Numbered from the whole stretch's first letter, positions 12,661 through 45,170 are shown. The stretch is 63,929 nt of DNA, filler included, from an uncultured Methanosarcinales archaeon (GCA_964550945.1; 5 parts of 5 records of this genome joined end to end with filler, not necessarily neighbours in it), one strand, 5' to 3'. Translations and numbers: made by a program. Notes: generated by a model from the letters alone, not told the origin.

Positions 12661-12745
12661 GGGCTCGTGGTCTAGCGGCTATGACAGCACCCTTACAAGT
12701 TACTATGAAAGGTGTTAGTCCCCGGTTCGAATCCGGGCGGGCCCA
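12661..12745 (+). tRNA. tRNA-Val(UAC) with 12-nt intron at 37/38 (12698-12709)
   Basis: Acceptor GGGCTCG/CGGGCCC, anticodon stem GCACC/GGTGT, T arm CCCGG-TTCGAAT-CCGGG. Confidence 0.92.
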
Positions 12746-12756
12746 CTTTATCAAAT

Positions 12757-12891
12757 GCGCCAGTGATCTAATGGCTACGACTGGCTAGGCTTAAATTTAA
12801 CCAGTTGCCATGAATGATAGGACCTTGCCAAGGTTCTCATCCGAGAATTTTAGCTTTGCTAAGATCGGAAATTCGAATCTCGGCTGGCGCA
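12757..12891 (+). tRNA. tRNA-Gly(GCC) with D-loop intron (12777-12813) and 53/54 intron (12846-12871)
   Basis: Acceptor GCGCCAG/CTGGCGC; BHB helices ATGG/CCAT and TCCG/CGGA with 3-nt bulges restore a standard cloverleaf. Confidence 0.9.
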
Positions 12892-13803
12892 TTTACTTTC
12901 TTTCACTGATTTGTAGAAGAAATACCCCACTATACAGCAAGTCACTACTGGGGTGACCCAGGAGGGAATATGCAGCTTAAAACTTTCCAGAATCATTATT
13001 GTGCCTAGTGCAAAAATAGAATACATTGCTCCATTTTTAAGATATTTGTACTTTTTTACATTCTCAATATTCTTGATTGTTATTTGCCTTACAACAATCG
13101 CACCTATCCCGTTTCCTATCAATATAAGGGGGATAGATAAAGTAAACGCAAATGCCCCTAAAACACCGTCAACAGAGAAAGTAGCATCTATCACCTCAAG
13201 ATAAAGGATTTTGCTTATATCAGAGATGTTTGTCTTCCCTTCAAGCATCTGTTTTTCCATCTTAGCTGCATTTTCCTTAAATCCGTGTGTTATGAAGAAG
13301 GCTGTTGAGCCTATAACTGCTCCAAAAGCCATAAAAGGGTTTTGCTTAATTGATAACCAAACAAGCAAAGCCAATATCACTGATACTATTGTGAAGAACC
13401 ATACACCATGTTTTTCAATCAATTCCTCTCCTGCGATGCCGTAGTGTTTAGGCTCCAAAAAAAGCCAATGAAAGAAAAGAAAAACAAGAAAGGTGCCACC
13501 TCCAATAAATAAAACCGGTGAAGATTCCTCAACTGCCTTTAAGATGATAGGATCTGAGCTAAATGCTAACCTCAAAACACCATTTATACCAATCTGAGGG
13601 TTGCTCCCCCAAAGAATTAAAAAAGGCAGCAAGCCCCTAACCAAAAAAACTGCGATAATCAGCCCCCATATCAAAAACCATCTTCTGGCTTTTTTTGAGA
13701 CTGTTGCCAGAACCTCTCCATTTATGATCGCATTGTCTATGCTGCTAATCACTTCAAAAAGGCTTAAGCCAATAATTATCAAGATTATTTCAAATATGCC
13801 CAT
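12859..13803 (-). CDS. DUF475 (TerC-like) membrane protein
   Basis: SSIDNAIIN, YLEVIDATFSVDGVLGAFA, YLKNGAMYSI. Confidence 0.9.
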   Translation of the reverse strand: MGIFEIILIIIGLSLFEVISSIDNAIINGEVLATVSKKARRWFLIWGLIIAVFLVRGLLPFLILWGSNPQIGINGVLRLAFSSDPIILKAVEESSPVLFIGGGTFLVFLFFHWLFLEPKHYGIAGEELIEKHGVWFFTIVSVILALLVWLSIKQNPFMAFGAVIGSTAFFITHGFKENAAKMEKQMLEGKTNISDISKILYLEVIDATFSVDGVLGAFAFTLSIPLILIGNGIGAIVVRQITIKNIENVKKYKYLKNGAMYSIFALGTIMILESFKLHIPSWVTPVVTCCIVGYFFYKSVKESKCASRDSNFRS

Positions 13804-13920
13804 GGTGTTCCTAAAACTGGTAAGGGTATATAAATTTATTGTGAGTTAAAATCTCATTTTCCACCGGTGTATCTCACTGGTGAATTGCTGCCAGTTATGT
13901 AATCAGGGGAAAATGAGAAC

Positions 13921-13985
13921 AAGAAAATCGGCCCGAGCGAAGCGAGCATACAACCAGTCTATTGACTAAGGTGGCCGATTTTCTT
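13921..13985. repeat. Intergenic hairpin carrying REP-like core
   Basis: 13-bp IR AAGAAAATCGGCC/GGCCGATTTTCTT enclosing CGAGCGAAGCGAG. Confidence 0.75.
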
Positions 13986-14039
13986 TGATATCCAAACAAA
14001 AATCTTTATAAATATACTAAGTTCTCTGGCTTATTAAAT

Positions 14040-14236
14040 GGGCTCGTAGCTCAGCCTGGTTAGAGCGCTGGTCTTATATGACCACGCTTTATGCAACTAA
14101 GACAGCCAGCGGTCGAGGGTTCAAAACTTAGGGACTGCACCCTAAAGGTACCGGCAGTCAAGTGGGACATTCCTCACTTTGTTCGGAAGTCCCACGAACT
14201 TGATGCAATCCCTTTGCGAAAGTCCCTTCGAGCCCA
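14040..14236 (+). tRNA. tRNA-Ile(UAU) with 37/38 intron (14079-14103) and 97-nt 59/60 intron (14126-14222)
   Basis: Acceptor GGGCTCG/CGAGCCC, stem CTGGT/GCCAG, CTTA/TAAG BHB; splicing restores GAGGG-TTCAAAT-CCCTT. Confidence 0.88.
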
Positions 14237-14289
14237 TTTTTCTCTTTTTAGAAGGAGATTAATAGAAAACAAAAAATTAGGTGATATAA

Positions 14290-14487
14290 ATGCCAATTGT
14301 AAACATTGAAACATGGCCAATGGATAAAAAGAAGAAACCAGAGCTTATTAAGAACATTACAGAAGTCTTTACAGAAATGGGAATACCTGCTCAGGCAGTA
14401 ACAGTAATTATCCATGAAACTGAGCTTGATAATTGGGGAAGCGGAGGAGAGCAGCATTCTGTGAAGTTCAAAGATTTAAAAAGATAG
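14290..14487 (+). CDS. 4-oxalocrotonate tautomerase family protein
   Basis: N-terminal catalytic Pro (MPIV), VTVIIHE...NWGSGG. Confidence 0.9.
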   Translation: MPIVNIETWPMDKKKKPELIKNITEVFTEMGIPAQAVTVIIHETELDNWGSGGEQHSVKFKDLKR

Positions 14488-14535
14488 TAAAAAACAATAA
14501 CGTTTATAAATGGGATAAAAAATACAACTTTTAAG

Positions 14536-14732
14536 GCCCCCATGGTGTAGTCCGGTCACAGAAATGCTGGAGAATCATTTCGGCTTTTCGAGCCGAAGAC
14601 GTGGGTTCAAAACGAACCTTTTTGCTCTGCAAAAATGTTCGATCGAAATGGGGAATCTCACTTCGTTCGATTCGTTACTTTTAGAAAAAGTAACCAAAAT
14701 GAGCAGGTTTGGTGAAAGTCCCGCTGGGGGCA
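14536..14732 (+). tRNA. tRNA-Glu(UUC) with 15-nt D-loop intron (14558-14572) and 107-nt 59/60 intron (14612-14718)
   Basis: Acceptor GCCCCCA/TGGGGGC, TCGGC-TT-TTC-GA-GCCGA; BHB helices CCGG/CTGG and perfect TTCA/TGAA. Confidence 0.9.
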
Positions 14733-14757
14733 TTTTTATTACAAAGGTGGTAACTAA

Positions 14758-14859
14758 ATGAAACGTGGATCAAGAAGATGGAAGAAGAAAGGCCAGATGA
14801 GATGGAAATGGCAACGCAAAAGAATGAAGAAAGAGAAAAGAAAAAGAGTAAGAAGATAA
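14758..14859 (+). CDS. rpl41e: Ribosomal protein L41e/eS32-like (33 aa, not in ORF track)
   Basis: MKRGSRRWKKKGQMRWKWQRKRMKKEKRKRVRR; AGGTGG SD upstream. Confidence 0.8.
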   Translation: MKRGSRRWKKKGQMRWKWQRKRMKKEKRKRVRR

Positions 14860-14985
14860 TTATTCTCTTAAATAGGTAACGCCATTAACAACATTAACTA
14901 ATTTCTTCTTATTTAAAGCTTCAACTAATTGGTTTGCAATGTCAACAGCAACGTTCTCCTGGGCTTCTATTGTTGATGCGCCTAG
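14860..14985 (-). CDS. serA: C-terminal end of D-3-phosphoglycerate dehydrogenase-like enzyme (cut by gap)
   Basis: LGASTIEAQENVAVDIA...NVVN matches the HLGAST.EAQ signature. Confidence 0.75.
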   Translation of the reverse strand, partial: LGASTIEAQENVAVDIANQLVEALNKKKLVNVVNGVTYLRE

Positions 14986-15085
14986 NNNNNNNNNNNNNNN
15001 NNNNNNNNNNNNNNNNNNNNNNNNNNNNNTTAATTAATTAANNNNNNNNNNNNNNNNNNNNNNNNNNNNNNNNNNNNNNNNNNNN
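14986..15085. other. Artificial contig linker
   Basis: N-run + TTAATTAATTAA + N-run. Confidence 0.97.
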
Positions 15086-16240
15086 ACAGGCCTAGTTCCA
15101 GGCATCCATATAAACTTGGTTAGCTTATTGCTGGTCAGTTTCTCTGGCTATCTTCTTGGATTTACCTCTCCATTAAGCTTAGGAGTTTTCATTATTTCAA
15201 TGGGCATAACTCATACATTTTTAGATGCAATACCCTCTATTTTTCTAGGCGCGCCAGATGCTGAAAAGGCTTTAATAGTATTGCCAGGCCATAAGCTATT
15301 ATTAGAAGGAAGAGGTTTTGAAGCAGTAAAATTGACAGTGATAGGAGCTTTTTTTGGCTTAGTGATTACAGTCCTGCTTACTCCCTTGATGATCCCTTTT
15401 GTGCCATTTATCTATAATTTTATACAGCCTCTTATAGGATACCTCCTGATATTTGTTGTCCTGTTCATGACCTTAAGGGAGAAAGGCATTAAAAAATTAT
15501 GGTCATCATTTGTTTTCCTTCTTTCAGGAATTCTTGGTATAATTGTCTTTAGCTGGCCAAACTTGAATCAGCCCTTGTTTCCAATGCTTAGCGGATTGTT
15601 TGGAATAAGCTCTTTGGTGATATCCTTGTCAGAGAAGGTCAAAATCCCTGAGCAGACAATAAGCGAGACAATCCATGTCAGCTTAAAAGAAAGGGTTAAA
15701 GCAATACTAACCGCTGTATTTTGCGGAAGCTTGACAGGATTATTGCCTGGATTAGGAGCAGCAGAAGCAGCTGTCATCGGGATGGAGATTGTAAGGAACA
15801 TCTCTAATTACGGCTTCATGATAATGATTGGCGGCATAGGCACTATTAACTTTTTATTTGGGCTTGTCGCATTTTACACGATCAATAAGGCAAGAAATGG
15901 GGCAATAGTGGCTTTGATGGAAATAATAGAATCAATCAGTTTTACAGATTTATTGATATTTTTAGCAGTAGCATTGATTGTAGGCTCTATCGCCTTATTT
16001 TTGTCGTTGGAAATCACCAAAGGCTTTGCCAATTTCATTGGAAAGGTGGATTACAAGAAGATTTCGATAATAGTGATATCATTCATAACTGTATTGGTTT
16101 TTGTGTTCAGCGGTTTTACCGGGCTTTTAATCTTAGTGATAAGCACAGCAATCGGCATTATCTCTCCCTTAGTCGGCATAAAGAGAAGCACAGCAATGGG
16201 CTGTTTATTATTGCCCGTTATACTCTATTTTGTTTTATAG
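15086..16240 (+). CDS. TctA/DUF112 family permease (5'-truncated)
   Basis: GLVPGIHIN, HTFLDAIPSIFLGAP, LPGH, many TM helices. Confidence 0.88.
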   Translation, partial: TGLVPGIHINLVSLLLVSFSGYLLGFTSPLSLGVFIISMGITHTFLDAIPSIFLGAPDAEKALIVLPGHKLLLEGRGFEAVKLTVIGAFFGLVITVLLTPLMIPFVPFIYNFIQPLIGYLLIFVVLFMTLREKGIKKLWSSFVFLLSGILGIIVFSWPNLNQPLFPMLSGLFGISSLVISLSEKVKIPEQTISETIHVSLKERVKAILTAVFCGSLTGLLPGLGAAEAAVIGMEIVRNISNYGFMIMIGGIGTINFLFGLVAFYTINKARNGAIVALMEIIESISFTDLLIFLAVALIVGSIALFLSLEITKGFANFIGKVDYKKISIIVISFITVLVFVFSGFTGLLILVISTAIGIISPLVGIKRSTAMGCLLLPVILYFVL

Positions 16241-16402
16241 AAAAAGTGATTTTAATCAATTTATCATTAATAAGTAATAAAAAAAGAAAGGTTTGTATAC
16301 CCGTTATGCTTCAACGTTAACTTTGCAAGCCTGCTATGGTTTATGCAAGAAGCTAGAATTATATGTGATGTCAAATAACATAGAAGGTCTAGAAGAACAA
16401 AA

Positions 16403-16906
16403 ATGGCAAAATACAAAACAATTGGGGCGATTTTGAGTGGGATTGCAATAGGCGCTGTTGGAGTCCTTGGATTGGAAGCACTCTTAAAAGAACCAGAACA
16501 CTCCGAAAAATATGCTCAAACTATTCCAGAGCAAAGTTTACAGGTTGCAAAACCCGAGATCTCTAATAACCAAGGAACAATCCAAGTAATAAATGAAGGA
16601 ATATACCATGGCGAATCTTATCAAGGTAAAGTAACCATCTCAACCGAAGGTCTGATAGTACCCCCGAATTACAAACCCACTTTGAATTTTTTTGATACAG
16701 CTACTAATCAAACCCACTATATTCCTTTTGATAATGTTAAAAGTTGGCAATATCTATACAGCGAGTATAACCTTAGATACGGTCGGCTTGAACTAAGGGA
16801 CGGTAAACCATTAACAGGAACCATTGGAAACAATTTCTCAGTTGAAACCAGCATTGGTAGAGTGATTATTGACTATCATAGTATACAAAGCATAGTAATG
16901 GACTAA
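16403..16906 (+). CDS. Hypothetical membrane-anchored protein
   Basis: N-terminal TM, beta-rich remainder. Confidence 0.65.
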   Translation: MAKYKTIGAILSGIAIGAVGVLGLEALLKEPEHSEKYAQTIPEQSLQVAKPEISNNQGTIQVINEGIYHGESYQGKVTISTEGLIVPPNYKPTLNFFDTATNQTHYIPFDNVKSWQYLYSEYNLRYGRLELRDGKPLTGTIGNNFSVETSIGRVIIDYHSIQSIVMD

Positions 16907-17093
16907 AAGTTACAAGACATCCGGGGTTATACTCTAACTCACAGGCGGTTCTATTAGTACTTTTAAAAACCAGATTAGGACAATATGTCAAACATTTTTC
17001 CAACTCGTTACGGCTTATTCCATAAACTGAACCAGTAAATCCTGCTTATCTAAGAAATTATTAATGTCAACTTAATTTTGTTTAAATAAAAAC

Positions 17094-18035
17094 CTAACGT
17101 ATAAAGGATTGTCTTTTGTATTCCCAACCATCCCATGTGTGATCATGTACAGTAGCCGTTCTAAGAGCCCCTTCCTCGATTGTAGCTAGGCTTCTTATGG
17201 GGTTAGAAGTTCCAAACCTTGCTATTATACTCTTTTTATCAGCACCTCTAAATTCAACATAACTGAATGCTAATTTAAGCTCGATTATCATTTGATGCTC
17301 AGTGAGGGGGTAATCAGAGTCATAATTAGGATCCCACTGTTTTAAATGTGTGCTTGTTGTGCATTCTGCATAAAATCTTACTTGGGGCATGTTTCTAACT
17401 TCTCTCGCAGCATCATTTTGGAGTTCTAGATACAGATCTCCACTTCCTCCAGTAAGAGTATAAAACCATGGCATAATCCGCCTTGCACAAAGATACTCTT
17501 TCTTTTCCCGATGTTTCCACCATTGGCTTGATTGTGATTTCCCTACAGCTTGGGTTTGGACATCATATTCATATACCTTCATATCACTCAATTCGTATTC
17601 CACACCTATACACACTCGGAATGCTCCTCTTTTTTCTGTATCATATTTTCCTAACCAGACAATTGGATTTCGATCTTCGTTAACACTCCTTCCATCAGGA
17701 TTCATTGTGTTTGGATTAAAATCAATTTCAAAGCGCAAAGGCATACTTCGAACTCTATTCAGGGCATCGCGCAATACCCCATATTCTTCGTTCTTCCTTT
17801 TGTGGTCCTCATCTGTATCAAATTCGTCTTTTTCTGGATAAGGGATGCTACTATTTGGACCATCATTAAATAGATCATCGATTGTGAAGGATTCTTTTTC
17901 ACCTCTACAAAATTTAATGCCATACCAATTAGTAGGTGTCGATGCAGTTTGGGCAGAGGTTAATGTAGGAATAACTAATCCTAAAGATGCCATTGCAGTT
18001 GTTTGTAGCATCTGCCTTCTTGTTAATGCGTTCAT
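17094..18035 (-). CDS. Hypothetical protein with twin-arginine-like signal
   Basis: TRRQML + hydrophobic stretch + TSA/Q cleavage-like site. Confidence 0.65.
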   Translation of the reverse strand: MNALTRRQMLQTTAMASLGLVIPTLTSAQTASTPTNWYGIKFCRGEKESFTIDDLFNDGPNSSIPYPEKDEFDTDEDHKRKNEEYGVLRDALNRVRSMPLRFEIDFNPNTMNPDGRSVNEDRNPIVWLGKYDTEKRGAFRVCIGVEYELSDMKVYEYDVQTQAVGKSQSSQWWKHREKKEYLCARRIMPWFYTLTGGSGDLYLELQNDAAREVRNMPQVRFYAECTTSTHLKQWDPNYDSDYPLTEHQMIIELKLAFSYVEFRGADKKSIIARFGTSNPIRSLATIEEGALRTATVHDHTWDGWEYKRQSFIR

Positions 18036-18187
18036 TTTATGAGAAGCAAAATATGTTTTAATTTATAAAACTTATGTAAATGATTTATTTTTGTTTGTTT
18101 CCCTCATGGAAGGTTGTTTCCCCATTATTCATACAAATCTTTCAATTTACAGAAACCTTTTTAAATCTACCCTGATTTTTACCAGCT

Positions 18188-18439
18188 ATGCAAGGGATAA
18201 TTGTCAATTTCAGGAAAAGCAAGCGCGTACAGAAGACCAATCATATAATAATCAAGGTTGGCGAAAAGAAAGAAGATGCTGTTAAGCTAATTGGTAAATC
18301 AGTTTCTTGGAAAAGCCCTGCTGGAAAAGAAATAACAGGCAAAATAGCAAAGGAACACGGAAGAAACGGCTGCATAAGGGCAATCTTCGAAAAAGGCCTG
18401 CCTGGGCAATCTGTTGGACAAAAGGTTAGCATTAGTTAA
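18188..18439 (+). CDS. rpl35ae: 50S ribosomal protein L35Ae
   Basis: WKSPAGK.I.GKI...HG.NG.IRA.FEKGLPGQ. Confidence 0.93.
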   Translation: MQGIIVNFRKSKRVQKTNHIIIKVGEKKEDAVKLIGKSVSWKSPAGKEITGKIAKEHGRNGCIRAIFEKGLPGQSVGQKVSIS

Positions 18440-18496
18440 TAATATTTTATAATTCTTAGATAGTTACTATTTTGGTCTAATTATAATCCAATAATC

Positions 18497-18988
18497 TTAT
18501 TTTGCAATTTTTAATAAGTCACTACCGACCTTTTCTAACATAACTCTGAATTCTTGTTGCGCATATTGTATTCTTGCCTCTTCATCATGTAAAGGTTTCC
18601 ATTGGGGATATTTTGCTCTTAGTTTCTGATTCTCAGAAATAATTTTCATTAGGCCTTCCAAAACCAATTGCGCAATTGCAACAGTATCTTGAATAGCTTT
18701 ATGGAGATCTTCACTTATCTTTTTAACCATTAGTAACTCATCATTCTCGATAACTAACAGTTTGCGAGCATTACTACCTCTTAATCCTTTTCTAAGTCCT
18801 TCCATAATAATTGCTTCGATTTCATCCCGATCATGAATCATGCGCCCTTCCACTGAATACATTCTTATCGCTTCACCTTTTAAGTCTCTAGTCGGAGCTC
18901 TCTGGGGACCCATCTTTCGTCTTGCATCTATCATGCTAGTATCAACTACCGCTCCAAAAATCCTTGGAAAAATAGCCATAATTATCAC
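18497..18988 (-). CDS. Hypothetical helical protein
   Basis: 163-aa ORF with GGAGGGTGA SD. Confidence 0.65.
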   Translation of the reverse strand: MIIMAIFPRIFGAVVDTSMIDARRKMGPQRAPTRDLKGEAIRMYSVEGRMIHDRDEIEAIIMEGLRKGLRGSNARKLLVIENDELLMVKKISEDLHKAIQDTVAIAQLVLEGLMKIISENQKLRAKYPQWKPLHDEEARIQYAQQEFRVMLEKVGSDLLKIAK

Positions 18989-19065
18989 CCTCCTGAATAT
19001 TATACACTCTTACTTAATATACTCCTATTTAAACATTTATATTCTAAAGAAATAGAATAAAGAAT

Positions 19066-19188
19066 TTAAGGGCAGACCTGTACAGGTATAACTCCTCTTG
19101 CCGCTAGTACTGTCAGAATAACCCCTAAAATAAATGCTGTAACAATCCAGGTCGCTGGATGCAAAATTATGGCTTTTTTATTAAACAT
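19066..19188 (-). CDS. Mini-protein with class III (pilin-like) signal peptide (40 aa, not in ORF track)
   Basis: MFNKKA/IILHPATWIVTAFILGLFLTVLAARG...; AGGTGA SD. Confidence 0.55.
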   Translation of the reverse strand: MFNKKAIILHPATWIVTAFILGVILTVLAARGVIPVQVCP

Positions 19189-19311
19189 TAACATCACCTT
19201 TTTTTGTTGATAATACCACCTTATCTAGCAGCTATTTAAATATTTCGATTTATTGCTTTAAAACCCATTCATTCAAAAACAGCAAATTATTTAAACCCTG
19301 ACAAATAAGAA

Positions 19312-20289
19312 ATGCGTATGGTGCTTGACAAGTCAAATATGCTGGCAGTCCTTGAAAATTTTCCAAAGCAATGCAGGGATGCATTGGCAATTTCTAAAGG
19401 AGAGAAGCTCTCTAAAAAAGTGACAAACATAGTCGTGACAGGCATGGGCGGTTCTGCAATCGGAGGGGATTTATTAAAAACCTGCCTTTCAAATACAGAG
19501 ATGCCTGTTTTTGTCAACCGCAGCTATAAGCTGCCTAATTTCGTTGACGAGAGCACATTGGTCTTTGCAGTTTCTTATTCAGGCAACACAGAGGAAACAT
19601 TGAGCGCTTGCCAGGATGCAATAAACAAAAAAGCCAATGTGATTGCAGTAGCTTCTGGAGGAAAATTGGCAGAGCTCTGCAAAAAAACAATAGTAATACC
19701 CTCAGGCTTGCAGCCAAGAAATGCAATTGCTTACCTTTTTTTCCCGATGTTAGGCCTTCTCTTTAATTCTGGGCTGATCAATATCTCTAATAAAGAATTA
19801 AACGAGATGTTAATAGTCTTAAAAAACGTGAATGAATTTAAGGAAAGGGCAGAAAAGCTTGCAAAATCCATACAAGGCAAGACGCCAATAATATACTCTT
19901 CTGATTTTTTAGAGCCTGTTGCATACAGGTGGAAATGCGAGTTTAATGAAAACAGCAAACAGCCAGCTTTCTGCAATGTGCTCCCGGAGATGAACCATAA
20001 CGAAATAGTGGGCTATCATTCTATGAGAAAAGACCAATATATCGCAGTATTGATAAGAGACAGGTTTGACCATCCAAGAATCCAAAAAAGAATGGATATC
20101 TGCTCGAATATTATGGAAAAGCGCATAGAAGTAGCGCAAGTGCATACTCAAGGAGAGAGCATTCTTGCAAGGTTGTTCTCAGCAATCTATCTTGGGGATT
20201 TCACTTCATACTATCTTGCTGCGCTCAATAGAATAGACCCAACACCAGTAGAAGTGATCGAATATCTCAAAAAGGAGTTGGTAAAATGA
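19312..20289 (+). CDS. Bifunctional phosphoglucose/phosphomannose isomerase
   Basis: GMGGS, SYSGNTEET, ENSK, PEMNHNEI. Confidence 0.93.
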   Translation: MRMVLDKSNMLAVLENFPKQCRDALAISKGEKLSKKVTNIVVTGMGGSAIGGDLLKTCLSNTEMPVFVNRSYKLPNFVDESTLVFAVSYSGNTEETLSACQDAINKKANVIAVASGGKLAELCKKTIVIPSGLQPRNAIAYLFFPMLGLLFNSGLINISNKELNEMLIVLKNVNEFKERAEKLAKSIQGKTPIIYSSDFLEPVAYRWKCEFNENSKQPAFCNVLPEMNHNEIVGYHSMRKDQYIAVLIRDRFDHPRIQKRMDICSNIMEKRIEVAQVHTQGESILARLFSAIYLGDFTSYYLAALNRIDPTPVEVIEYLKKELVK

Positions 20290-20534: not shown

Positions 20535-20583
20535 TCAAAAAAATTATATATCCAGCTGGATATCTTGCTAATTGGGGGATTAA

Positions 20584-22647: not shown

Positions 22648-22681
22648 TTTTAATATAGGGGATTAAATTCTTGCCTTTCAA

Positions 22682-22786
22682 GGGGCTGTAGTGTAGTTTG
22701 GCTATCACTGGCGCTCGGGGAGGACTTAAAGTCTTTCTTTTATCGCCTAATAGCGTCCAACCCGTGTTCAAATCACGGCAGCCCCA
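22682..22786 (+). tRNA. tRNA-Pro, probably GGG, with 31-nt intron (22721-22751)
   Basis: Acceptor GGGGCTG/CAGCCCC, stem GGCGC/GCGTC, CCGTG-TTCAAAT-CACGG; C at position 33 atypical. Confidence 0.8.
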
Positions 22787-23037
22787 TACATTCCTTACTT
22801 CTACAGGGGCGTTCATGCTATTGAGTGTAACGAAATAGCATAAACTCATCGCCGGTATCTGTAGGGTGCAGTCCCTCCAACGAATTCCCTTCATATAGTT
22901 CGTGAGACTTCCGAGCAAACCTCAGAAAACACAGTTTTATGATGGTTTAGAAACCATTTATTTCTAAAAGCGAGGAATGTCTCACTAGACTGTAGAATGC
23001 AAACGTACTCGTTTGCGTGGGAACCACGGCAGCCCCA
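22787..23037. mobile_element. Modular palindromic element ending in a duplicate of the tRNA-Pro 3' end
   Basis: CACGGCAGCCCCA at 22774-22786 and 23025-23037; internal modules shared (inverted) with the tRNA-Ile intron. Confidence 0.7.
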
Positions 23038-24595: not shown

Positions 24596-24740
24596 CCCCG
24601 CCTAGCTCAAACTCATTAAATATGAGGAGCATCGGCTAGAGCGTTCGGCTGTAGAAATTGTTTTGATATGTGCAGAGCACTCTGATGATAAACAATCAGC
24701 CGTTACCGAAAGGTTCCTGGTTCGAATCCGGGGGCGGGGA
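24596..24740 (+). tRNA. tRNA-Tyr(GUA) with 15/16 intron (24611-24632) and 50-nt 37/38 intron (24655-24704)
   Basis: C1-G72 acceptor CCCCGCC/GGCGGGG, stem TTCGG/CCGAA, BHB GCTC/GAGC with CTCAT/ATGAG stem. Confidence 0.88.
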
Positions 24741-28476: not shown

Positions 28477-29667
28477 ATGTTCAAACTAATCTCACAAGAT
28501 AAAAAAGCCCGCCTTGGCATAATCAAAACCCCTCACGGCTCTTTTGAAACGCCTTATTTTATTCCGGTTGCTACAGCAGCCACAGTAAGAGCATTAGACC
28601 AACAAGACATGAAATGTCTAAAAGCAGGCGTTCTTTTAGCAAATACTTTTCATCTTCATCTAAGGCCAGGAGACGAATTGATAAAAAAACTTGGCGGCTT
28701 GCATAAATTCATGAGTTGGGAAAATCCAATTGTAACAGATTCTGGCGGCTTTCAGGCATTTAGCTTAGGGTTTGGGATGGAGCATGGTGTTGGTAAAATT
28801 GGAAATATCTTCACTAATCAAACACCCAACCAAAATCCCAAGCTCGCAAAAGTGGATAATTTTGGAGTTACCTTTAATTCGCAAATAGATGGAAAAATAA
28901 TAAGATTNNNNNNNNNNAGATTAACCCCAAAAACCTCCATTGAGATCCAGAACAATTTAGGAGCCGATATTATTTTCGCGTTTGATGAATGCACCTCTCC
29001 ATTATCTGGCTATGAATACACCAAAATTGCCCTAAAAAGAACGCATAGCTGGGCAGAAGAATGCATTAGATATCACAAAAACAAAAAACAGGCTTTATTT
29101 GGCATTGTACAAGGTGGAGCATATAATGATTTAAGGATTAAAAGCGCCAAATTCATTAATTCTTTAAGCTTTGATGGTTTTGGCATTGGCGGCTCGTTAG
29201 GAAACTCAAAAACCGACATGCACAAAATACTTGACTGGACCATCCCTTTGCTTGACAAAAACAAGCCAAGGCATCTTTTAGGGATAGGCGCTATAGAAGA
29301 CATATTCAATTCTGTTGAGAAAGGCATTGATACTTTTGACTGTGTTGCGCCAACAAGGTGGGCAAGAAGAGGCCATCTCTATATCTCACCAAAAGAAAAA
29401 GGGAGCCAAAAAAATAAATTCAGGATAAATATCGCAACAGCAAAATTCAAAGAAGACAAAAAACCAATAGACAAAAGCTGCAGCTGTTATGTCTGCAAAA
29501 ACTATTCAAGAGCCTATCTCAGGCACTTACACACAGCAAATGAGCTGACTTATTTTAGATTGGCAAGCTACCATAACCTTAATTTTATCCTAAGATTGAT
29601 GGAGCAGATCAGAACTTCAATTAAAGAGAATAGCTTTCAAAAATTAAAAAAGGAATGGTTGAGATGA
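28477..29667 (+). CDS. tgt: Bacterial-type tRNA-guanine(34) transglycosylase (10-N gap at 28908-28917)
   Basis: NTFHL, TDSGGFQ, FDEC, GIVQGG, FDCV, CSCYVC...H zinc site; no PUA extension. Confidence 0.92.
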
Positions 29668-34624: not shown

Positions 34625-34634
34625 ATATATCACT

Positions 34635-34652: not shown

Positions 34653-34653
34653 T

Positions 34654-37170: not shown

Positions 37171-37234
37171 ATTGCCACTTTTTAGTGGTTAAAATAGAAA
37201 GATTTATAAAGAATAAAAATAATTATTTCTGATA

Positions 37235-38230: not shown

Positions 38231-38256
38231 GAATCACTCCTGTAACTTATGTTCTG

Positions 38257-40287
38257 TTATGGTTGTATAGTCCTAAGATAATTCCCAAACATTGTTAGTC
38301 TTTGGTTGTTATTACCTTCACTGCCTTCTGAATAGATTTCAACATCAACATGCGGCCCAGTTGCAATGCCTGAATCTCCTACTCTGGCGATATTATCTCC
38401 TGGCTGAACCCAATTACCTAATTGAGCATCCTTATCATTAAACCTTGCATGGTGATGGGTTTCCATAAAAATTTTGTTGCCATCATTATCTAAAAGGATG
38501 GTGCCATCTTTGTTGTACAATTCTATTTTCATTGTGTTACCATAACCGCCATTATATCCTTTTTTAATGCCAACAACCTTGCCATAAATCGCTCCTTGTT
38601 CGCCAATAGCTTCTCCAAGATCAGGGAATCCCACATAAGATCCTTTTGGAGCAGCAAGATCATAAGCAATATGATTACCCGCTGGAAGGTTGGGATCTTT
38701 TTCATTGGTGCGCTCTCTAGGAACATCGCTAACATAATTAAAATTATTAATCCAACTACTACCATGATTACCTACCCAATAAAGCAAAGCTTCTGAGCTG
38801 ATATCAGTGCTGCCAGGTCGTTTAGTTGGAATTGACCTAGCTCCAGCAGACTCAATTTTATCCGAAACAGTCACAGAAGCATCAAACAAGAAATCTGATG
38901 ATTCGTCACGGCCTTTTTTATTAATTAATTGGTCTAAAGTAAAACCCGTGTTATCTTCAATAATTTGAGCTGCTTTATCAGCATGTTCTTGTGTTGGAGT
39001 GCCTGTTCCATCCCAGCCAGCTAACCTATAAGCATAATTAATCAATTCCTGGACCGTCTTATATTTCCCTTCTCTGTGGCCTTCCAACAAGGGATTATTT
39101 GTATTTTTCTCTTGGGACATTATATTATGCTCTCCATAAACCCTATCTCTCATTTTAGGTGTGTTCAACAGATAATTGTTATCAATTGATCCTAATTTCC
39201 ATCTTATTTCATCTTGAACATAAAGTAGTTCTCCTTTGTCAGAATTTTTAATCCATGCAGAGCCGTCAACATATATGAAAGGGCCAACATCTCTGTTAAT
39301 AGCTGTTAGGGTTTCTGGCCCAAGAACGCTTAATTCCGTTTCTCTACCAGAAGCTAACTGGCCTTTCTCAGTTAAGTATTGCTGATATTCTTTCAAAGCA
39401 GATTTTGTTCTAGGACCAAGAACATTATCTGGAACAAGAGCCTTGCCTTCGTAATCCTTGTAGCCCAATTCGTTCAATAAGAGCTGCAGCCCATATACAT
39501 CACCTGCCTCAAGTTGATTCCTAGTCTCAAATTTCGCATCTGCAATATAAGCCCTAATCCCAGTCTGGTAAACAACACTAAGGCCTTTAGCTTCCCCCAT
39601 AAGTTTACTATCATAAATGCATATGCCTGCTTGGCCACATTTGTTAAAAAGAATTTTTTTGTCCTCACTATCACTATTTTCAATTTCTTTTACAACCCCA
39701 TTATTTATCTCTAAGTTCTCTCCTTCTTTCAACCAGAATTCCCCTTGCTTTGCCTGTAACTTCCCCTTAACAGCAATGCCATCAACTTTTATTCCCTCTT
39801 CCCCATTGATGGTAAATTCACTATCTGAGCTCGGTTTGCCAACCGCGCTTCCCTTAGGGTAAGTTATTTCAATATTATTACTCTTGACGCTTATTTGAGT
39901 GCCTGCTGGAAAATTTTTGTAATCATCAGGAGCCAGCTTATCAGCTCCAACTGAAATAGTGCCATCAGCACCCCAATTGATTATAGAAGCATCTTTTATA
40001 GAAGCATCTTTGCTGAATTTTAAATCCTTACTGCCACCGAAACTCTGAATGAATCTATCGCCATCCACCATATTAGAGTTTTGATTGATAAGGATATAAT
40101 CCAGATTACCTAATGCATAGTTCATCTCTTTCCACTTCACCCCATCTGCATTTCCGTGCTCAAGAGCAGAGTTTATACTGTTTGGATCATTCATATCAAC
40201 TGCGTTTTTCTCTTCAGTAGCTGGCTGGCCTATAGCAAGAAAGCTGCATAAAACCAAAACTATTATTAATATTACCTTCAGTTTCAT
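38257..40287 (-). CDS. Secreted protein with peptidoglycan-binding domain and C-terminal M23 peptidase
   Basis: Signal peptide; DVYGLQLLLNELGY...LGPRTKSALKEYQ; HIAYDLAAPKG, GGYGN, VQPGDNIARVGDSGIATGPHVD. Confidence 0.85.
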   Translation of the reverse strand: MKLKVILIIVLVLCSFLAIGQPATEEKNAVDMNDPNSINSALEHGNADGVKWKEMNYALGNLDYILINQNSNMVDGDRFIQSFGGSKDLKFSKDASIKDASIINWGADGTISVGADKLAPDDYKNFPAGTQISVKSNNIEITYPKGSAVGKPSSDSEFTINGEEGIKVDGIAVKGKLQAKQGEFWLKEGENLEINNGVVKEIENSDSEDKKILFNKCGQAGICIYDSKLMGEAKGLSVVYQTGIRAYIADAKFETRNQLEAGDVYGLQLLLNELGYKDYEGKALVPDNVLGPRTKSALKEYQQYLTEKGQLASGRETELSVLGPETLTAINRDVGPFIYVDGSAWIKNSDKGELLYVQDEIRWKLGSIDNNYLLNTPKMRDRVYGEHNIMSQEKNTNNPLLEGHREGKYKTVQELINYAYRLAGWDGTGTPTQEHADKAAQIIEDNTGFTLDQLINKKGRDESSDFLFDASVTVSDKIESAGARSIPTKRPGSTDISSEALLYWVGNHGSSWINNFNYVSDVPRERTNEKDPNLPAGNHIAYDLAAPKGSYVGFPDLGEAIGEQGAIYGKVVGIKKGYNGGYGNTMKIELYNKDGTILLDNDGNKIFMETHHHARFNDKDAQLGNWVQPGDNIARVGDSGIATGPHVDVEIYSEGSEGNNNQRLTMFGNYLRTIQP

Positions 40288-41027
40288 TTTAATTGCGCCA
40301 CAAACCTGAAAACATATGGCTCCTCAATGTCAGTTGTATAATCCTTTATTGTGAAAAGCACTTTTTTTTCTCCGATCATATTTACTGCAATTTTTAGATT
40401 GTTCTGCTCAGCCAGCTCAACCAAGCAGCTCAAGCAGACAGTTTCCGGGTCTTTAACAAGCTCATTCACAATTGCTCTGCTTATATCATATATCTTCCCA
40501 AGCCTCATTGGCTCGATTGTCACAAGGAACGGCTGAAGATTATTTGATTTTTCTTGCTGGAATAAAGTCAAATCAGCATTTACATTAAAAGTGACTTTGT
40601 CTTGCGCAACTGTAGTTTTTGTTATAGGATTGCCTTCCTCAAATGAAAATCCAATATCCTCTCCAGTACAATCATAGATAAACTCATTCATAAAGTCAGA
40701 CAGCTCAGATTCTATTGTTGCCATTGAAGGCGTAATTGCCGCATTGTCAAAAAAAACCGCGGATTGTGCATCGTTATAATCAAAACCATCTGGAAGGATA
40801 TAATACCCGCCTTGCGCCCCAATCAATTCCAAAGCATCTGTTCCTACCTCTTCCATGCACCTCTGCATATACTCTCTAACCGGTTTTACATCCAGCTCGC
40901 TAACTTCATCAGGAGTTAGCTCACTCTTCTGCGTATTTAAACTTACTATATAAGCCATTAAAGACAAAACAAGGATCACCAAACCCAGGATAATAAATAA
41001 AGTTATCTGCCCCTTTTTTCTAACCAT
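40284..41027 (-). CDS. Class III signal peptide (pilin-like) protein
   Basis: RKKG/QITLFIILGLVIL. Confidence 0.8.
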   Translation of the reverse strand: MVRKKGQITLFIILGLVILVLSLMAYIVSLNTQKSELTPDEVSELDVKPVREYMQRCMEEVGTDALELIGAQGGYYILPDGFDYNDAQSAVFFDNAAITPSMATIESELSDFMNEFIYDCTGEDIGFSFEEGNPITKTTVAQDKVTFNVNADLTLFQQEKSNNLQPFLVTIEPMRLGKIYDISRAIVNELVKDPETVCLSCLVELAEQNNLKIAVNMIGEKKVLFTIKDYTTDIEEPYVFRFVAQLK

Positions 41028-41073
41028 ACCTTATTTTTGCATCAGCTTATTTAAATAGTTTACTAATCAAAAA

Positions 41074-41239
41074 GGCTGTGTTCAAAATATAGGTGGCATC
41101 AATTTTGTGAGGCTCTTCTGTTACAAAAGCAAAAGAGTTAAGAGGGTTGGCTCCTACGGAGCTTTAACGATATGTGTACTATCAGGAGCTAAGCCGAACA
41201 CCGATGCCACCCGAACGAAGTGAGATTTTGAACACAGCC
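41074..41239. mobile_element. 166-bp MITE with 15-bp TIRs and 10-bp target-site duplication
   Basis: GGCTGTGTTCAAAAT/ATTTTGAACACAGCC; TAATCAAAAA at 41064-41073 and 41240-41249. Confidence 0.85.
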
Positions 41240-41307
41240 TAATCAAAAACGCAATCAATTAGCAAAAAAACATAGATATATAAATTAGTGATATTAATAA
41301 TTAATTG

Positions 41308-42333
41308 ATGGTATCAATAAAAAGAGAGGGCATTATTTTAGAGCCTACAAAGTTGGGTTTTGAAAACAAGGGCGTCTTTAATCCAGCCTGCATTCTAAAG
41401 GGCAAGTATATCCACATGTACTATCGGGCTTGGGATGTTAATAACCGTTCAACAATAGGCTATTGCAAACTAGAAGGCCCTTTAAAAGTCATAGAGAGGT
41501 CAAAAAAGCCAGTATTATTTCCTGAAGCTGGCTATGAGCTTAATCTCGAAGATCCAAGAGTTGTCTTGCTTGATGAAAAATATTATATGACTTATACTGC
41601 TTATGACGGCAGAAATGTGAGGATTGCTTACGCAACCAGCAAAGACCTTAAAAAATTTAAAAAACAAGGCATCATATCGCCAGAAATAACCTATGATGGA
41701 GCAGAGGATATTTTTAAGGCTTGCAGCTCTAAGCTAAAAGAAAGATATTTTCTTTTTGAATCATATTTTAAGGACATAGTTGGAAAAGATGTGTTGTTGT
41801 GGAACAAAGATGCTTTTTTGTTCCCAAAAAAGATCAATGGAAAGTATGCATTGATCCACAGGATCCTCCCAGACATCCAGGTTATATATTTCAAGGGTTT
41901 CAAAGAGCTGACATTAGATTTCTGGAAAGAGTATTTTAAAAGATTGAGTGATTTTGTGGTTCTTGAATCAGAGTACTGGTATGAGTCAAGGAATATAGGG
42001 GGAGGATGCCCTCCAATAGAAACCGATAAAGGCTGGCTTATGATATATCATGCAGTAGATGACATGGACAGAGGAAAGATATACCGGGCAGGAGCTGCTT
42101 TGCTTGACAAAAAAGATCCGACAAAGGTTATAGGGCATTTAAAAGAGCCGTTGTTTTCGCCAGAAGAGGTTTGGGAAAAAAAGGGCAATGTCCCTAATGT
42201 AGTGTTTCCCACAGGCGCAGTCATCTTAAAGAACCGGCTTTATATTTATTACGGAGCTGCTGATACAAGGATAGCTGTTGTTTCCCTTGACCTCAACGAG
42301 CTCTTAGACGAGCTAACCCTTAGCAAGAAATAG
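41308..42333 (+). CDS. GH130-like glycosidase/phosphorylase
   Basis: VFNPA, EDPR, NKDAFLFP, IHR, GWLMIYH, VPNVVFP, YYGAAD. Confidence 0.9.
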   Translation: MVSIKREGIILEPTKLGFENKGVFNPACILKGKYIHMYYRAWDVNNRSTIGYCKLEGPLKVIERSKKPVLFPEAGYELNLEDPRVVLLDEKYYMTYTAYDGRNVRIAYATSKDLKKFKKQGIISPEITYDGAEDIFKACSSKLKERYFLFESYFKDIVGKDVLLWNKDAFLFPKKINGKYALIHRILPDIQVIYFKGFKELTLDFWKEYFKRLSDFVVLESEYWYESRNIGGGCPPIETDKGWLMIYHAVDDMDRGKIYRAGAALLDKKDPTKVIGHLKEPLFSPEEVWEKKGNVPNVVFPTGAVILKNRLYIYYGAADTRIAVVSLDLNELLDELTLSKK

Positions 42334-42362
42334 CTAGTTTGTATTGACTGCAAAGTCCTACA

Positions 42363-42488
42363 TGTCAAGAACTGCGGACTGAAGTCCACAGCATGCAGTT
42401 CTTGAGCATGCTCAGAAATATACCCTAATCACCAAGCGGATTGGAATTTGTCCATCAGTCAAAATAAGCTAAGGGTATATTTCTGACA
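42363..42488. repeat. TGTCA...TGAGCATGCTCA...TGACA repeat, copy 2
   Basis: 11-bp arm 42365-42375/42395-42405, palindrome 42403-42414, 15-bp arm 42412-42426/42472-42486. Confidence 0.85.
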
Positions 42489-42524
42489 CATAAATATTTA
42501 TATTAGTAACATTCTTATTTTCTA

Positions 42525-44726
42525 ATGGAAGACAAATCATCATGGATTCTATATATGTGCACCTATCCTCCAAGAGAATGCGGAATAGCCACTTTTAGCA
42601 AGGACTTGACAACAGCCATTGACAGGAAGTTCGCTCATTCTATAAAATCAAAGATCCTTGCAATGAACAACGACTTAACCAATATATACAACTACCCTGA
42701 AGATGTCATTTTCCAGATATCCGACGCTGATATCCAGGAGTATATCAATATTGCAAAGAAAATCAACATGGCAGACAAGATTAAATTAGTCAATATCCAG
42801 CATGAATTTGGCATCTTTGGAGGAGAGTACGGAAGTTATCTGATAGCATTCCTTGAGATCATAGAAAAACCTGTAATAATCACTTTTCACTCTATTCTGC
42901 CAAAGCCAGATGATAAGATGAAAAAGATTGTCCAGACTTTAGCAGAGAAATCAGAATGTATGATTGTGATGTCAAAAATAGCAGCTAACATTTTAAGAGA
43001 GGTATATGGCATCAAAACAGGCATTGAGATTGTGCCTCATGGCATCCCCACTGTCTCATTTAGCCATCCTACAACCGAAAAAACAAGAATGGGCTATAAA
43101 GATAGGATTATTCTATCTTCATTTGGAATGATAAACCCTGGAAAGGGGTATGAGCAGGTCATAGATGCTCTCCCCAAGGTTATTGCAAAATTTCCTAACA
43201 TATTATACCTCATAGTAGGCGAAACCCATCCTGTGGTAAGAAGAAGAGAAGGAGAACAGTATAGAAACTTCCTTGAAAAGAGAGTGAAAAAATTAAAGCT
43301 TGAAAATAACGTAAAATTTTATAATAAATATGTAAAGCTAAAAGAGATTGTGCAATATCTGCAGGCAACTGACATATACATATCCTCAAACACCGACCCA
43401 AATCAAGTGACTAGCGGAACACTATCCTATGCTGCTGGCACTGGCCGCGCAGTAGTATCAACGCCTTTCTTGCACGCCAAAGAGCTTGTCACGCCAGATA
43501 TTGGAGAATTAGTTAAATTTGGCGATTCAGAATCATTTGCTAATGCCATTATAAAGGTTTTATCCCATCCAAAGCTAAAGTCTGATATGGAAAGAAACGC
43601 GTATGCAAAAACAAGGAATATGACTTGGGATAATGTAGCATTGGCTTACATGGAAATTTTCAAGAAGCATGTGGGCATGTTCGAGGAGTTTGGCATAAAA
43701 ATTCCAAGTGTCAAGCTGAACCATGTAATTAAGCTGACAGACGACTTCGGCATGATTCAATTTGCCAATAACACTCATCCAGATATATCTTCAGGTTATG
43801 CTCTTGATGATAATGCAAGGGCAATGATTGTCTGCTGTATGCACTATAATACGTTTAAGGACTCTTCTAAACTCAGTTTAATCAAAGAGTATATGAATTT
43901 TATCAGCCATACGCAGCAAAGTGACGGAAGATTCTTTAATTTTGTTAACCATGCAAGGGATATAGACTTAGAGCAATGGAGTGATGATCCTCATGGAAGA
44001 GCTTTATGGTCTCTTGGGTTTTTGATCAATACTCCAGGGATACCTAATGATATGAAAGCGAACGCAGAGCAGATGTTTAAAAAAGCGTTGCCTATTGTTG
44101 ACAATATAAGGTCGCCAAGAGCAGTCGCATTTAATATTCTTGGATTATATTTTTACAACAAAGCAAAGCCAGATGTTGAAAATACCCAAAAGATCAAGGA
44201 ACTGGCTGATTACCTTGTCAAGTTGTATAATAATTGCTCATCTGATAAATGGCACTGGTTTGAGGGCTATCTAACTTATTCCAACAGCAAGCTTCCTGAA
44301 GCGCTTTTTTATTCATACCTGGCAACAAAAGAAAAAAAATATTTGGATGTTGCGCAAAAAACCCTAGATTTCCTAAGTTCAATAACCTTTGACGATGGCA
44401 TATTTGCGCCTATTGGCCAAAATGGATGGTACATGAAGAATGGCCAGAAAGCTCATTTTGACCAGCAGCCTGTGGATACGGCCTCTATGGTGCAGACGCT
44501 TCTTCTGGCAAACAAGATTACTAATAAATCAAGTTATCTGAAAGATGCTGTCAAAGCATTCCAATGGTTTCTGGGCAGGAATTGCCTGAATAGGATTGTT
44601 TATGATGAATCAACAGGCGGCTGCCATGACGGCATTGGAGAATCAGCAATCAATCTCAACCAGAGCGCAGAATCAACCATCTCTTATCTTATTGCAAGGC
44701 TTTCATTATACAAGAATAATCAGTAA
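42525..44726 (+). CDS. GT4 glycosyltransferase fused to alpha/alpha-toroid domain
   Basis: YPPRECGIATF, QHEFGIFGG, SGTLSYA; C-terminal DDNARA, FDQQP, NQSAEST. Confidence 0.88.
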   Translation: MEDKSSWILYMCTYPPRECGIATFSKDLTTAIDRKFAHSIKSKILAMNNDLTNIYNYPEDVIFQISDADIQEYINIAKKINMADKIKLVNIQHEFGIFGGEYGSYLIAFLEIIEKPVIITFHSILPKPDDKMKKIVQTLAEKSECMIVMSKIAANILREVYGIKTGIEIVPHGIPTVSFSHPTTEKTRMGYKDRIILSSFGMINPGKGYEQVIDALPKVIAKFPNILYLIVGETHPVVRRREGEQYRNFLEKRVKKLKLENNVKFYNKYVKLKEIVQYLQATDIYISSNTDPNQVTSGTLSYAAGTGRAVVSTPFLHAKELVTPDIGELVKFGDSESFANAIIKVLSHPKLKSDMERNAYAKTRNMTWDNVALAYMEIFKKHVGMFEEFGIKIPSVKLNHVIKLTDDFGMIQFANNTHPDISSGYALDDNARAMIVCCMHYNTFKDSSKLSLIKEYMNFISHTQQSDGRFFNFVNHARDIDLEQWSDDPHGRALWSLGFLINTPGIPNDMKANAEQMFKKALPIVDNIRSPRAVAFNILGLYFYNKAKPDVENTQKIKELADYLVKLYNNCSSDKWHWFEGYLTYSNSKLPEALFYSYLATKEKKYLDVAQKTLDFLSSITFDDGIFAPIGQNGWYMKNGQKAHFDQQPVDTASMVQTLLLANKITNKSSYLKDAVKAFQWFLGRNCLNRIVYDESTGGCHDGIGESAINLNQSAESTISYLIARLSLYKNNQ

Positions 44727-44804
44727 GGGCTAAGGGACATATTTATTTTCTGAAAAGAATTATGAGAATTCTAAAAAAGGTATATGCAGTTCAGCATCAG
44801 CTAT

Positions 44805-44921
44805 AAAAAATTTTAACAACAATGGCAGCGGCGAGGCAGGGGAACCCCTGTGGGATGCCGAGCAGGGCATTTTGCAAAGCAAAATGACCGTCGCCTGCCA
44901 TTTTTGTTGTTAAAATTTTTT
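44805..44921. repeat. Long imperfect inverted repeat with internal hairpins (MITE-like)
   Basis: AAAAAATTTTAACAACAATGGCAG/CTGCCATTTTTGTTGTTAAAATTTTTT enclosing CAGGGGAACCCCTG and CATTTTGCAAAGCAAAATG. Confidence 0.7.
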
Positions 44922-44933
44922 AAAAAGAGGTTT

Positions 44934-45033
44934 NNNNNNNNNNNNNNNNNNNNNNNNNNNNNNNNNNNNNNNNNNNNTTAATTAATTAANNNNNNNNNNN
45001 NNNNNNNNNNNNNNNNNNNNNNNNNNNNNNNNN
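44934..45033. other. Artificial contig linker
   Basis: N-run + TTAATTAATTAA + N-run. Confidence 0.97.
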
Positions 45034-45170
45034 CATGATTTAAGGAAGCTCACTTCTTGATTGAACTTCTCACCTACGTCTTCAGCGTATTGAGCTATAG
45101 CATCGCTATAAGTGCTCTCCTTAGCCGAAGGCCGGATTTAAAATTCCTTCTCAGGCTGAGCTACCGTCCC
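45034..45170 (-). tRNA. tRNA-Phe(GAA), 3'-truncated, with at least three non-canonical introns (45121-45151, 45090-45111, 45039-45070)
   Basis: Splicing at three BHB motifs gives GGGACGG-TA-GCTC-AGCCTGGGA-GAGC-A-CTACG-CT-GAA-GA-CGTAG-GTGTC. Confidence 0.87.

Follow-up and report, generated by a model that had tools for sequence, protein, structure and literature searches.

How does an archaeon decode its genes when every tRNA gene in view is interrupted, in most cases outside the anticodon loop? The question is raised by a stretch of DNA from an uncultured archaeon deposited under Methanosarcinales (GCA_964550945.1), 63,929 nucleotides (nt) long including filler, which we call the window. It consists of contigs C42, C43, C44, C45, and C124 of one genome with N spacers between them; the span 12661-45170, on which the tRNA genes lie, comprises four contigs with N-spacer joins, i.e., not a single locus. 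The source genome has 1.97 Mb in 177 contigs, a GC content of 36.6%, and a completeness of 92.5%. The 80 closest relatives of its splicing endonuclease EndA (64-81% identity) are mostly labelled Woesearchaeota, Nanoarchaeota, or Nanoarchaeia, the remainder being third-party bins under other labels, and the host is probably a member of the Woesearchaeales, that is, a Woesearchaeota-type archaeon. The reading that we favour, with a probability of roughly 70%, is that these are working Woesearchaeota-type tRNA genes with inserts of the bulge-helix-bulge (BHB) type, predicted to be cut by an EndA that is likely an alpha4 enzyme and to be rejoined by RtcB, and that some of the introns stem from hairpin elements. 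It is based on the anatomy of the genes, one gene per anticodon, central helices of 4 bp, a single alpha-type EndA gene, and an RtcB gene, both present in the genome.

Interrupted tRNA genes of the window and the genome

The preliminary description of this DNA had listed seven tRNA genes with 13 introns, nine non-canonical and four canonical, and all of them were found where it had placed them (Table 1). Our own finder, a cloverleaf model allowing BHB-type jumps, returned the six complete genes with ten introns, and the hand-parsed tRNA-Phe adds three. The spliced products had been said to form standard cloverleaves; indeed, ARAGORN at its default threshold passes all six complete ones. Unspliced, ARAGORN and Rfam detect only tRNA-Val in the window, and ARAGORN in intron mode reads tRNA-Pro as CGG, here read as GGG. 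Local folds revealed the helix-and-bulge shape at most junctions, which for the Ile 59/60 intron is not the minimum-energy fold. The 3' part of tRNA-Gly(GCC) overlaps the end of an opposite-strand open reading frame (ORF, 12859-13803). tRNA-Phe stops at the contig edge after position 51, with the T-arm and the 3' acceptor strand outside the contig; its spliced product cannot be scored because the contig end cuts the gene, and its 3' end was not found in the assembly, while all three of its introns show a central helix of 4/4 pairs. Public DNA contigs from runs of three studies span parts of the Val, Gly, Ile, and Glu inserts with zero differences, though the best-matching run may be that of the source sample; other contigs of the same runs lack precisely the 15 bases of the Glu D-loop insert. 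No RNA run was listed among the public runs containing this sequence, which says nothing about expression.

Table 1. Coordinates of the tRNA genes and element-related features, counted from the first letter of the window
Feature	Position	Strand	Details
tRNA-Val(TAC)	12661..12745	+	12-nt intron 12698-12709 at 37/38
tRNA-Gly(GCC)	12757..12891	+	introns 12777-12813 (D-loop after 20a, 37 nt), 12846-12871 (53/54, 26 nt)
tRNA-Ile(TAT)	14040..14236	+	introns 14079-14103 (37/38, 25 nt), 14126-14222 (59/60, 97 nt)
Element head hairpin CTWAGGG-N5/6-CCCTAWAGRTACC	14127..14152	+	5' end of Ile 59/60 intron
tRNA-Glu(TTC)	14536..14732	+	introns 14558-14572 (D-loop, 15 nt), 14612-14718 (59/60, 107 nt)
tRNA-Pro(GGG)	22682..22786	+	C33; 31-nt intron 22721-22751 at 37/38
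Variant element head	22854..22876	-	downstream of tRNA-Pro, reverse orientation
Second copy of tRNA-Pro positions 61-73	23025..23037	+	exact, 13 nt
tRNA-Tyr(GTA)	24596..24740	+	introns 24611-24632 (15/16, 22 nt), 24655-24704 (37/38, 50 nt)
tRNA-Phe(GAA), partial	45170-45034	-	introns 45151-45121 (18/19), 45111-45090 (27/28), 45070-45039 (46/47); hand-parsed

Genome-wide, the finder identified 37 complete genes: two are intron-free, and 14, 15, and six have one, two, and three introns, respectively. Run on the masked genome, it missed the partial tRNA-Phe and Arg(TCT), the latter detected by Rfam and added by hand; with these two, there are 39 tRNA genes, 37 of them interrupted by a total of 66 introns of 11-110 nt, with 26 located at 37/38, 15 at 59/60, and 25 elsewhere. 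The heavy intron load that had been proposed is thus present and, as described below, common across the order, while the statement that every tRNA gene is interrupted holds for the window but not for the genome, two of whose genes are intron-free. All 37 complete spliced products were accepted by ARAGORN at its default threshold, and they represent 36 different anticodons (CAT twice), one gene per anticodon. On 1.2 Mb of reversed genome, no match reached a score of at least 5; the real genes score between 46 and 75. Genes for Ala(CGC), Arg(CCG), Gln(TTG), Glu(CTC), Ile(GAT), Leu(CAG), and Val(CAC) were not found in a homology search of the genome and may be unassembled, absent, or hidden.

Standard finders had been expected to miss such genes, which was borne out for Rfam and ARAGORN: on the unspliced genome Rfam detects 12 genes, and ARAGORN five, or 12 in intron mode, some with a wrong anticodon. 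Lowering the ARAGORN threshold gave 745 calls, mostly spurious, and was abandoned. This bears on annotation in general, as Rfam alone sees tRNAs for 9/20 amino acids in a genome that has them for all 20; without splicing, eleven amino acids would have no tRNA. According to the accessible text of a recent study (10.64898/2026.05.13.725050), complete Nanobdellota genomes have a median of 35 tRNAs by tRNAscan-SE, and tRNA-Trp is missing in 30 of 123 complete Woesearchaeales genomes, with loss, split genes, and detection failure not distinguished. In our genome, tRNA-Trp has three introns (37/38, 53/54, and 59/60), and it has two in G016, a single-contig genome from another family of the order; this suggests hidden introns as the cause of the apparent absence of Trp in Woesearchaeales.

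Some features of individual tRNAs are worth recording. Instead of the near-universal U, position 33 is a C in Pro(GGG) and in Val(GAC) (C6:38620-38519). AUA appears to be served by tRNA-Ile(UAU) (Table 1), also present in G016; the genome has only two CAU tRNAs, TiaS was not found in it (TIGR03280, PF08489), and an AUA-decoding strategy with Ile(UAU) has been described for ARMAN (PMC3239211). The canonical introns of Tyr (Table 1), elongator Met (C5:18895-18942), and Trp (C81:1489-1533) carry TGA/GATGA-type boxes, also in relatives, and those of Met and Trp resemble each other; they are possibly kink-turn or box C/D-like guide introns. The Ala(TGC) intron (C88:857-897) fits no register cleanly, lying either at 56/57 with a 3/4 helix or at 59/60 with a 4-nt bulge.

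Predicted splice junctions and a dispersed hairpin element

In both 3-nt bulges of each intron, the predicted cut follows the second base. When the search was rerun without any BHB term, the number of inserts stayed the same in 36 of the 37 genes, so that the inserts are independent of the motif; since the mature sequence was identical in only 19 of the 37, the exact position of many junctions depends on the BHB rule. At non-canonical sites the finder required at least three of the four central helix pairs and rewarded four. A full 4-bp central helix was found in 37 of 40 non-canonical introns, compared with about 0.9 expected from shuffled introns: 14 of 15 at 59/60 (0.34 expected) and 23 of 25 at the other sites (0.58 expected). 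Among the canonical introns, 9/26 have all four pairs (null of about 0.6) and 24/26 at least three. Both flanking helices accompany the full central helix in 26 of the 40 non-canonical introns (12/15 at 59/60, 14/25 elsewhere); in the 59/60 introns, the intron-side helix reaches at least two pairs in only four. With only 26 junctions of this complete form, EndA would also have to cut HBh' and hBH forms, and it is predicted to tolerate both; the substrates thus suggest a tolerance broader than strict hBHBh'.

Position 59/60 can be regarded as the T-loop twin of 37/38, as both lie between the sixth and seventh base of a seven-base loop, which would explain why it is the second hot spot. The T-stem would serve there as the outer helix, with TTCR pairing with YGAA at the intron end; 12 of the 15 introns at this site end in AG before T60.

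As for the source of the introns, the Ile 59/60 intron of the window opens with a hairpin that recurs elsewhere. The exact head pattern occurs four times in the genome, always at tRNAs: in this intron and at Gly(TCC), Thr(GGT), and Thr(TGT), where it separates the gene from a duplicated fragment of its 5' part. Variants of the head lie antisense ahead of duplicated 3' ends of Pro (22854-23037) and Arg(TCG). The element was found in 10 of 301 genomes of the order, two of them unpublished, with no control matches, and one genome (G064) carries ten copies, most of them outside tRNAs. The W and W' positions of the head pair in 44 of 45 copies (35 A-T, nine T-A), the copies not being independent. 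Counting 36 distinct copies with enough flank (ten short ones were dropped), a duplicate of at least 13 nt lies beside the head in 20, compared with two of 84 look-alike controls, or in 20 of 34 without the unpublished pair; the duplicates are mostly tRNA ends, but include some protein-gene ends.

The head also opens 59/60 introns in five genomes from three families and in four anticodon types, a 27-nt relic included, and in one metagenome contig: Ile here, Pro(GGG) in G064, Pro(TGG) in G439 and G094, and Gly(TCC) in G168. The first 41 nt of the Pro(TGG) intron of G439 are those of the Ile intron. In G211, the head opens a D-loop intron of Thr at the point where the Thr 5' fragments of our genome end. 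Independently of the head, the 59/60 introns of Glu(TTC) and of Lys(CTT), located on another contig, are homologous (83 of 116 columns identical); beyond this pair and a match between Ile and the Pro flank, a BLAST search for intron donors gave only short near-chance matches.

We propose that small non-coding hairpin elements, inserting as DNA at the D-loop (around 20/21) or the T-loop (57-60), are the origin of at least some introns. Inserts able to form a BHB would persist as introns, and those accompanied by a duplicate of the gene end as flanks. The mobilising enzyme would act in trans; from the bulged hairpin our guess is an HUH/Y1-type transposase. The data on the element would fit such DNA-level insertion filtered by BHB formation. 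Repetitive extragenic palindromes (REP/REPIN) and IS200/IS605 miniatures are short non-autonomous substrates of HUH/Y1 enzymes; their hairpin is imperfect, with a single bulged base, and has a short conserved sequence at its foot. The element is similar in its imperfect hairpin and covarying stem, which is a resemblance only, no linked transposase having been found; gene-end duplications of 13-30 nt are not known as a typical feature of IS200/IS605. The head motif was not noticed in the stretches read at three Y1 loci, two of which lie at contig ends, and four pattern matches in viral contigs all lack the full head. A casposon or another element with terminal inverted repeats was considered and set aside, as inspection of the flank copies by eye revealed no inverted repeat at their far end.

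An RNA route is conceivable but somewhat doubtful as an alternative: excised introns would reverse-splice at BHB-forming sites, be reverse-transcribed, and recombine, leaving flank copies and duplicates as by-products with no DNA transposase involved. The head begins exactly at the 5' splice site in all intron copies, at 59/60 and in the D-loop, the Lys and Glu introns are homologous, and no mobile-element gene was found beside the element copies scanned, all of which speaks for this route. However, the copies beside the 3' duplicates are antisense to the tRNA, the duplicates run a few bases past the mature tRNA ends, and the element is also present at the ends of protein genes and in several copies in G064.

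Compatible with our preferred reading, yet unlikely as the driving force, is selection for introns as a shield, in which those at 37/38 and 59/60 would disrupt the sites where viruses or plasmids integrate, an idea of Randau and Soll for anticodon-loop and T-arm sites that is reviewed, together with intron transposition, by Yoshihisa 2014 (PMC4090602, in its accessible part). Both hot spots coincide with regions named there as integration sites of Sulfolobus spindle-shaped viruses (SSV), and invasion of these genes is evident from the duplicated tRNA ends and from the Lys locus, where a LAGLIDADG gene separates the full gene from a fragment of its 5' end. Against it, the load varies widely: 40 of 41 genomes of the order (one per family) have between 9 and 41 Rfam-visible tRNA genes. 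BHB geometry by itself also accounts for both hot spots.

The Lys locus just mentioned (C5:22796-23900) consists of a 22-nt 5' fragment of tRNA-Lys(CTT), a LAGLIDADG gene of 223 amino acids (aa), and the full Lys gene, which has an intron at 22/23, near the break point. G016 carries a different element, some 90-100 nt long, which recurs in Met and Trp introns and is found two times in those of Arg(CCT); cross-type copying of introns therefore occurs in another family too. Relatives (G394 contigs C41 and C55; loci L112 and L127) also show T-arm segments with introns, or pieces of tRNA, repeated in tandem, possibly through repeated duplication by the same process. The window has other intergenic palindromic hairpin modules (41074-41240, 42410-42490, 44824-44902, and 22930-23015); the one at about 41212-41227 has 16 nt in common with the Glu 59/60 intron.

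Splicing endonuclease and the weight of the evidence

The genome encodes EndA as a single alpha-type gene of 191 aa that adjoins an RNase Z-like gene, with one match each to PF01974 and PF02778. Neither a second subunit nor a three-unit fusion of about 390 aa was found in the genome by Pfam, tblastn, or phmmer, and each of 30 genomes of the order, single-contig ones included, likewise has one EndA match. The catalytic triad Y127, H137, and K168 is invariant. The loop between the Tyr and His has nine residues in 110 of 111 homologues, as in M. jannaschii, compared with 15 in N. equitans and 14 in ARMAN-2, and shares a G-x-K-P motif with ARMAN-2. At the site of the crenarchaea-specific loop (CSL, L1), the protein has a ten-residue gap relative to the S. 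tokodaii alpha subunit and a length close to that of M. jannaschii, and the alignment to solved structures contains no insertion of CSL or ARMAN-specific loop (ASL, L2) type in the N-terminal domain. An alignment-based model places a short hairpin at the CSL/ASL site with a predicted local distance difference test score (pLDDT) of 82-91, falling below 50 in the Tyr-His loop; as this model is poor in the catalytic domain, a fold search only confirms the family. A single-sequence model was discarded (pLDDT 41.8). The acidic L10 loop is retained in the alignment to 1a79, while the N. equitans alpha subunit lacks it. A triad within one gene plus the acidic L10 loop, as judged from homologous alignment, is the arrangement of the alpha4 type, and EndA is likely a homotetramer.

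The preliminary description had inferred a relaxed EndA like that of Thermoproteales and ARMAN. This was not confirmed for the enzyme, of which only one alpha subunit was found, with loops of about M. jannaschii length, the L10 loop, and no CSL/ASL insert; at the level of the substrates it stands in part, as judged by the 26 of 40 complete junctions. A loop-less alpha4 enzyme would cope since nearly all non-canonical sites offer it a complete central helix, and it would tolerate the loss of one outer helix. Across 29 of 30 genomes, the last left out for its partial sequence, the closer the EndA to that of our genome, the lower the number of tRNAs seen by Rfam (rho -0.64); nothing is drawn from this, because the relatives are not independent and no loop differs among them.

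That EndA instead forms (alpha-beta)2 heterotetramers as in N. equitans, with a beta subunit that is unassembled or too divergent to detect, which would rescue the relaxed enzyme, appears quite improbable. N. equitans alpha is the closest solved sequence (E 1e-33), relaxed junctions are present among the introns, and crenarchaeal beta chains were missed by the same search. Yet N. equitans beta was detected from this query at E 2.6e-13 with no second match in our genome or in 30/30 relatives, and the alpha subunit has an acidic L10 loop of its own, for which a beta would otherwise be needed.

Several points weigh against the reading of working genes spliced by a loop-less alpha4 EndA and partly seeded by hairpin elements. 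Splicing is deduced from DNA sequence alone. The central-helix figures are partly circular and lean high because the scoring of the finder favours good helices, 14 of the 40 non-canonical junctions fail the strict test, and, according to the parts accessible, published alpha4 and alpha'2 enzymes cut such junctions poorly (PMC3239211, PMC3488258). A very divergent beta subunit would escape the search, and the genome is 92.5% complete. Regarding the element, it accounts for only one of the 66 introns and heads 59/60 introns in just five of 401 genomes; kin and re-assembled samples inflate its counts; only one pair of non-canonical introns in the genome is clearly homologous; no transposase or integrase was found in the 49 scanned of 69 ORFs flanking element copies; and a Y1 transposase was found in only two of five element-bearing genomes. 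That the inserts reflect decaying pseudogenes or assembly errors and remain unspliced is nevertheless hardly credible: the genome is a fragmented metagenome assembly of 177 contigs, splicing was read from DNA, and C33 replaces U33 in two tRNAs, but the interrupted genes are the sole ones found for their anticodons, eleven amino acids would otherwise lack a tRNA, the inserts are unchanged in contigs of other runs, the BHB helices lie far above the null, and the single-contig G016 shows the same pattern.

Spread across the order and relation to known systems

Interrupted tRNA genes are an order-wide trait, and the window is typical of the intron-rich end of the order. In G016, 28 of 34 tRNA genes are interrupted by 44 introns, 17 of them at 59/60, and all 34 products pass ARAGORN after splicing. 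A short pattern for 59/60 introns, which catches only four of the 15 of our genome and most of whose matches are unchecked as tRNAs, occurs in 248 of 401 genomes with about 751 matches, compared with 58 genomes and 64 matches in the reversed control; leaving aside twelve unpublished genomes, all matching, the tally is 236 of 389. Apart from tRNA genes, the window encodes a queuine tRNA-guanine transglycosylase of bacterial type in an archaeon (28477-29667; TIGR00430 above cut-off) and, after tRNA-Glu, a short Arg/Lys-rich ORF (14760-14861), which we take to be ribosomal protein L41e.

Published systems are compared here as far as their accessible text goes. Multi-intron tRNAs are known from Thermoproteales, from ARMAN-2 (Ca. 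Micrarchaeum; PMC3239211), and from Asgard Freyr-, Jord-, and Atabeyarchaeaceae (10.64898/2026.10.13.758758). As in our genome, these have BHB introns at 37/38, 53/54, 59/60, and other sites, up to three per gene, and many are missed by standard finders. At 37/39, the load is similar to that of three Asgard genomes (92-95%) and higher than the values given in PMC3239211, at most 87%, with 56% in ARMAN-2; 59/60 is the dominant second site here, with 15 of 66 introns, as with the 17 of 44 in G016. The lineages differ in the enzyme, an (alpha-beta)2 or epsilon2 EndA with CSL/ASL loops there and a single alpha unit without them here. An alpha4 EndA has been described as requiring the strict motif (Fujishima 2011, PMC3239211), the ASL as conferring cutting of a 59/60 hBH intron (Hirata 2012, PMC3488258), and the loop model for the breadth of EndA is repeated in PMC12397907.

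The core of the finding is anticipated by Kaneta 2018 (PMC5829648), in whose accessible text L3-bearing alpha4 EndA of DPANN, including Ca. Woesearchaeota RBG_13_36_6, is tied to more disrupted tRNAs, so that this link in DPANN is already in print. The L3 described there is a loop inserted before the catalytic His (N. equitans 90-98, ARMAN-2 240-247), whereas the nine residues here contain no insert over M. jannaschii, with G-x-K-P shared; Kaneta 2018 may have scored such a short loop as L3. That text covers one Woesearchaeota genome and, in the part accessible, gives neither order-wide nor position data. In the literature searched, with subscription papers and bioRxiv supplements outside the coverage, we found no order-wide account of Woesearchaeales tRNA introns or of the hairpin element, and no earlier account of an EndA without loop insert, of the size of the load, or of the order-wide spread; the link at the level of the lineage is the part already published.

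On the origin of introns, related ones in different tRNA types have been attributed to intron transposition in Thermoproteales (Fujishima 2010, via PMC4090602), and integration of a recombinase element was proposed for tRNA disruption in Caldiarchaeum (Sugahara 2012, PMC3293823). Our data resemble both in the related introns across tRNA types and in a duplicated tRNA fragment beside the insertion at an intron-gaining gene. They differ from the Caldiarchaeum model, a 1.8-kb recombinase cassette, in an insert of about 60-240 nt without a protein, and the same head is seen here as intron, 5' flank, 3' flank, and free copy across several families. The accessible part of the Asgard preprint found no general route of arrival and closes with the view that "how they arrive remains open" (10.64898/2026.10.13.758758), while here a dispersed element can be traced into introns.

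Tentatively, Woesearchaeales might thus be a fourth intron-rich archaeal lineage, with a load of about 95%, a loop-less single-subunit EndA, and introns seeded by protein-less hairpin elements. If true, this would break the rule that relaxed splicing needs an (alpha-beta)2 or epsilon2 architecture or a loop insert, and the rule would become testable with a 191-aa enzyme and natural relaxed substrates (Tyr 15/16, Phe 27/28, and 59/60). It would also provide the first traceable source of archaeal BHB introns, an element present in three states, as intron, as flank with a duplicated tRNA end, and free. The origin of introns would then become testable as well, with one element tying together introns, duplicated gene ends, and free copies.

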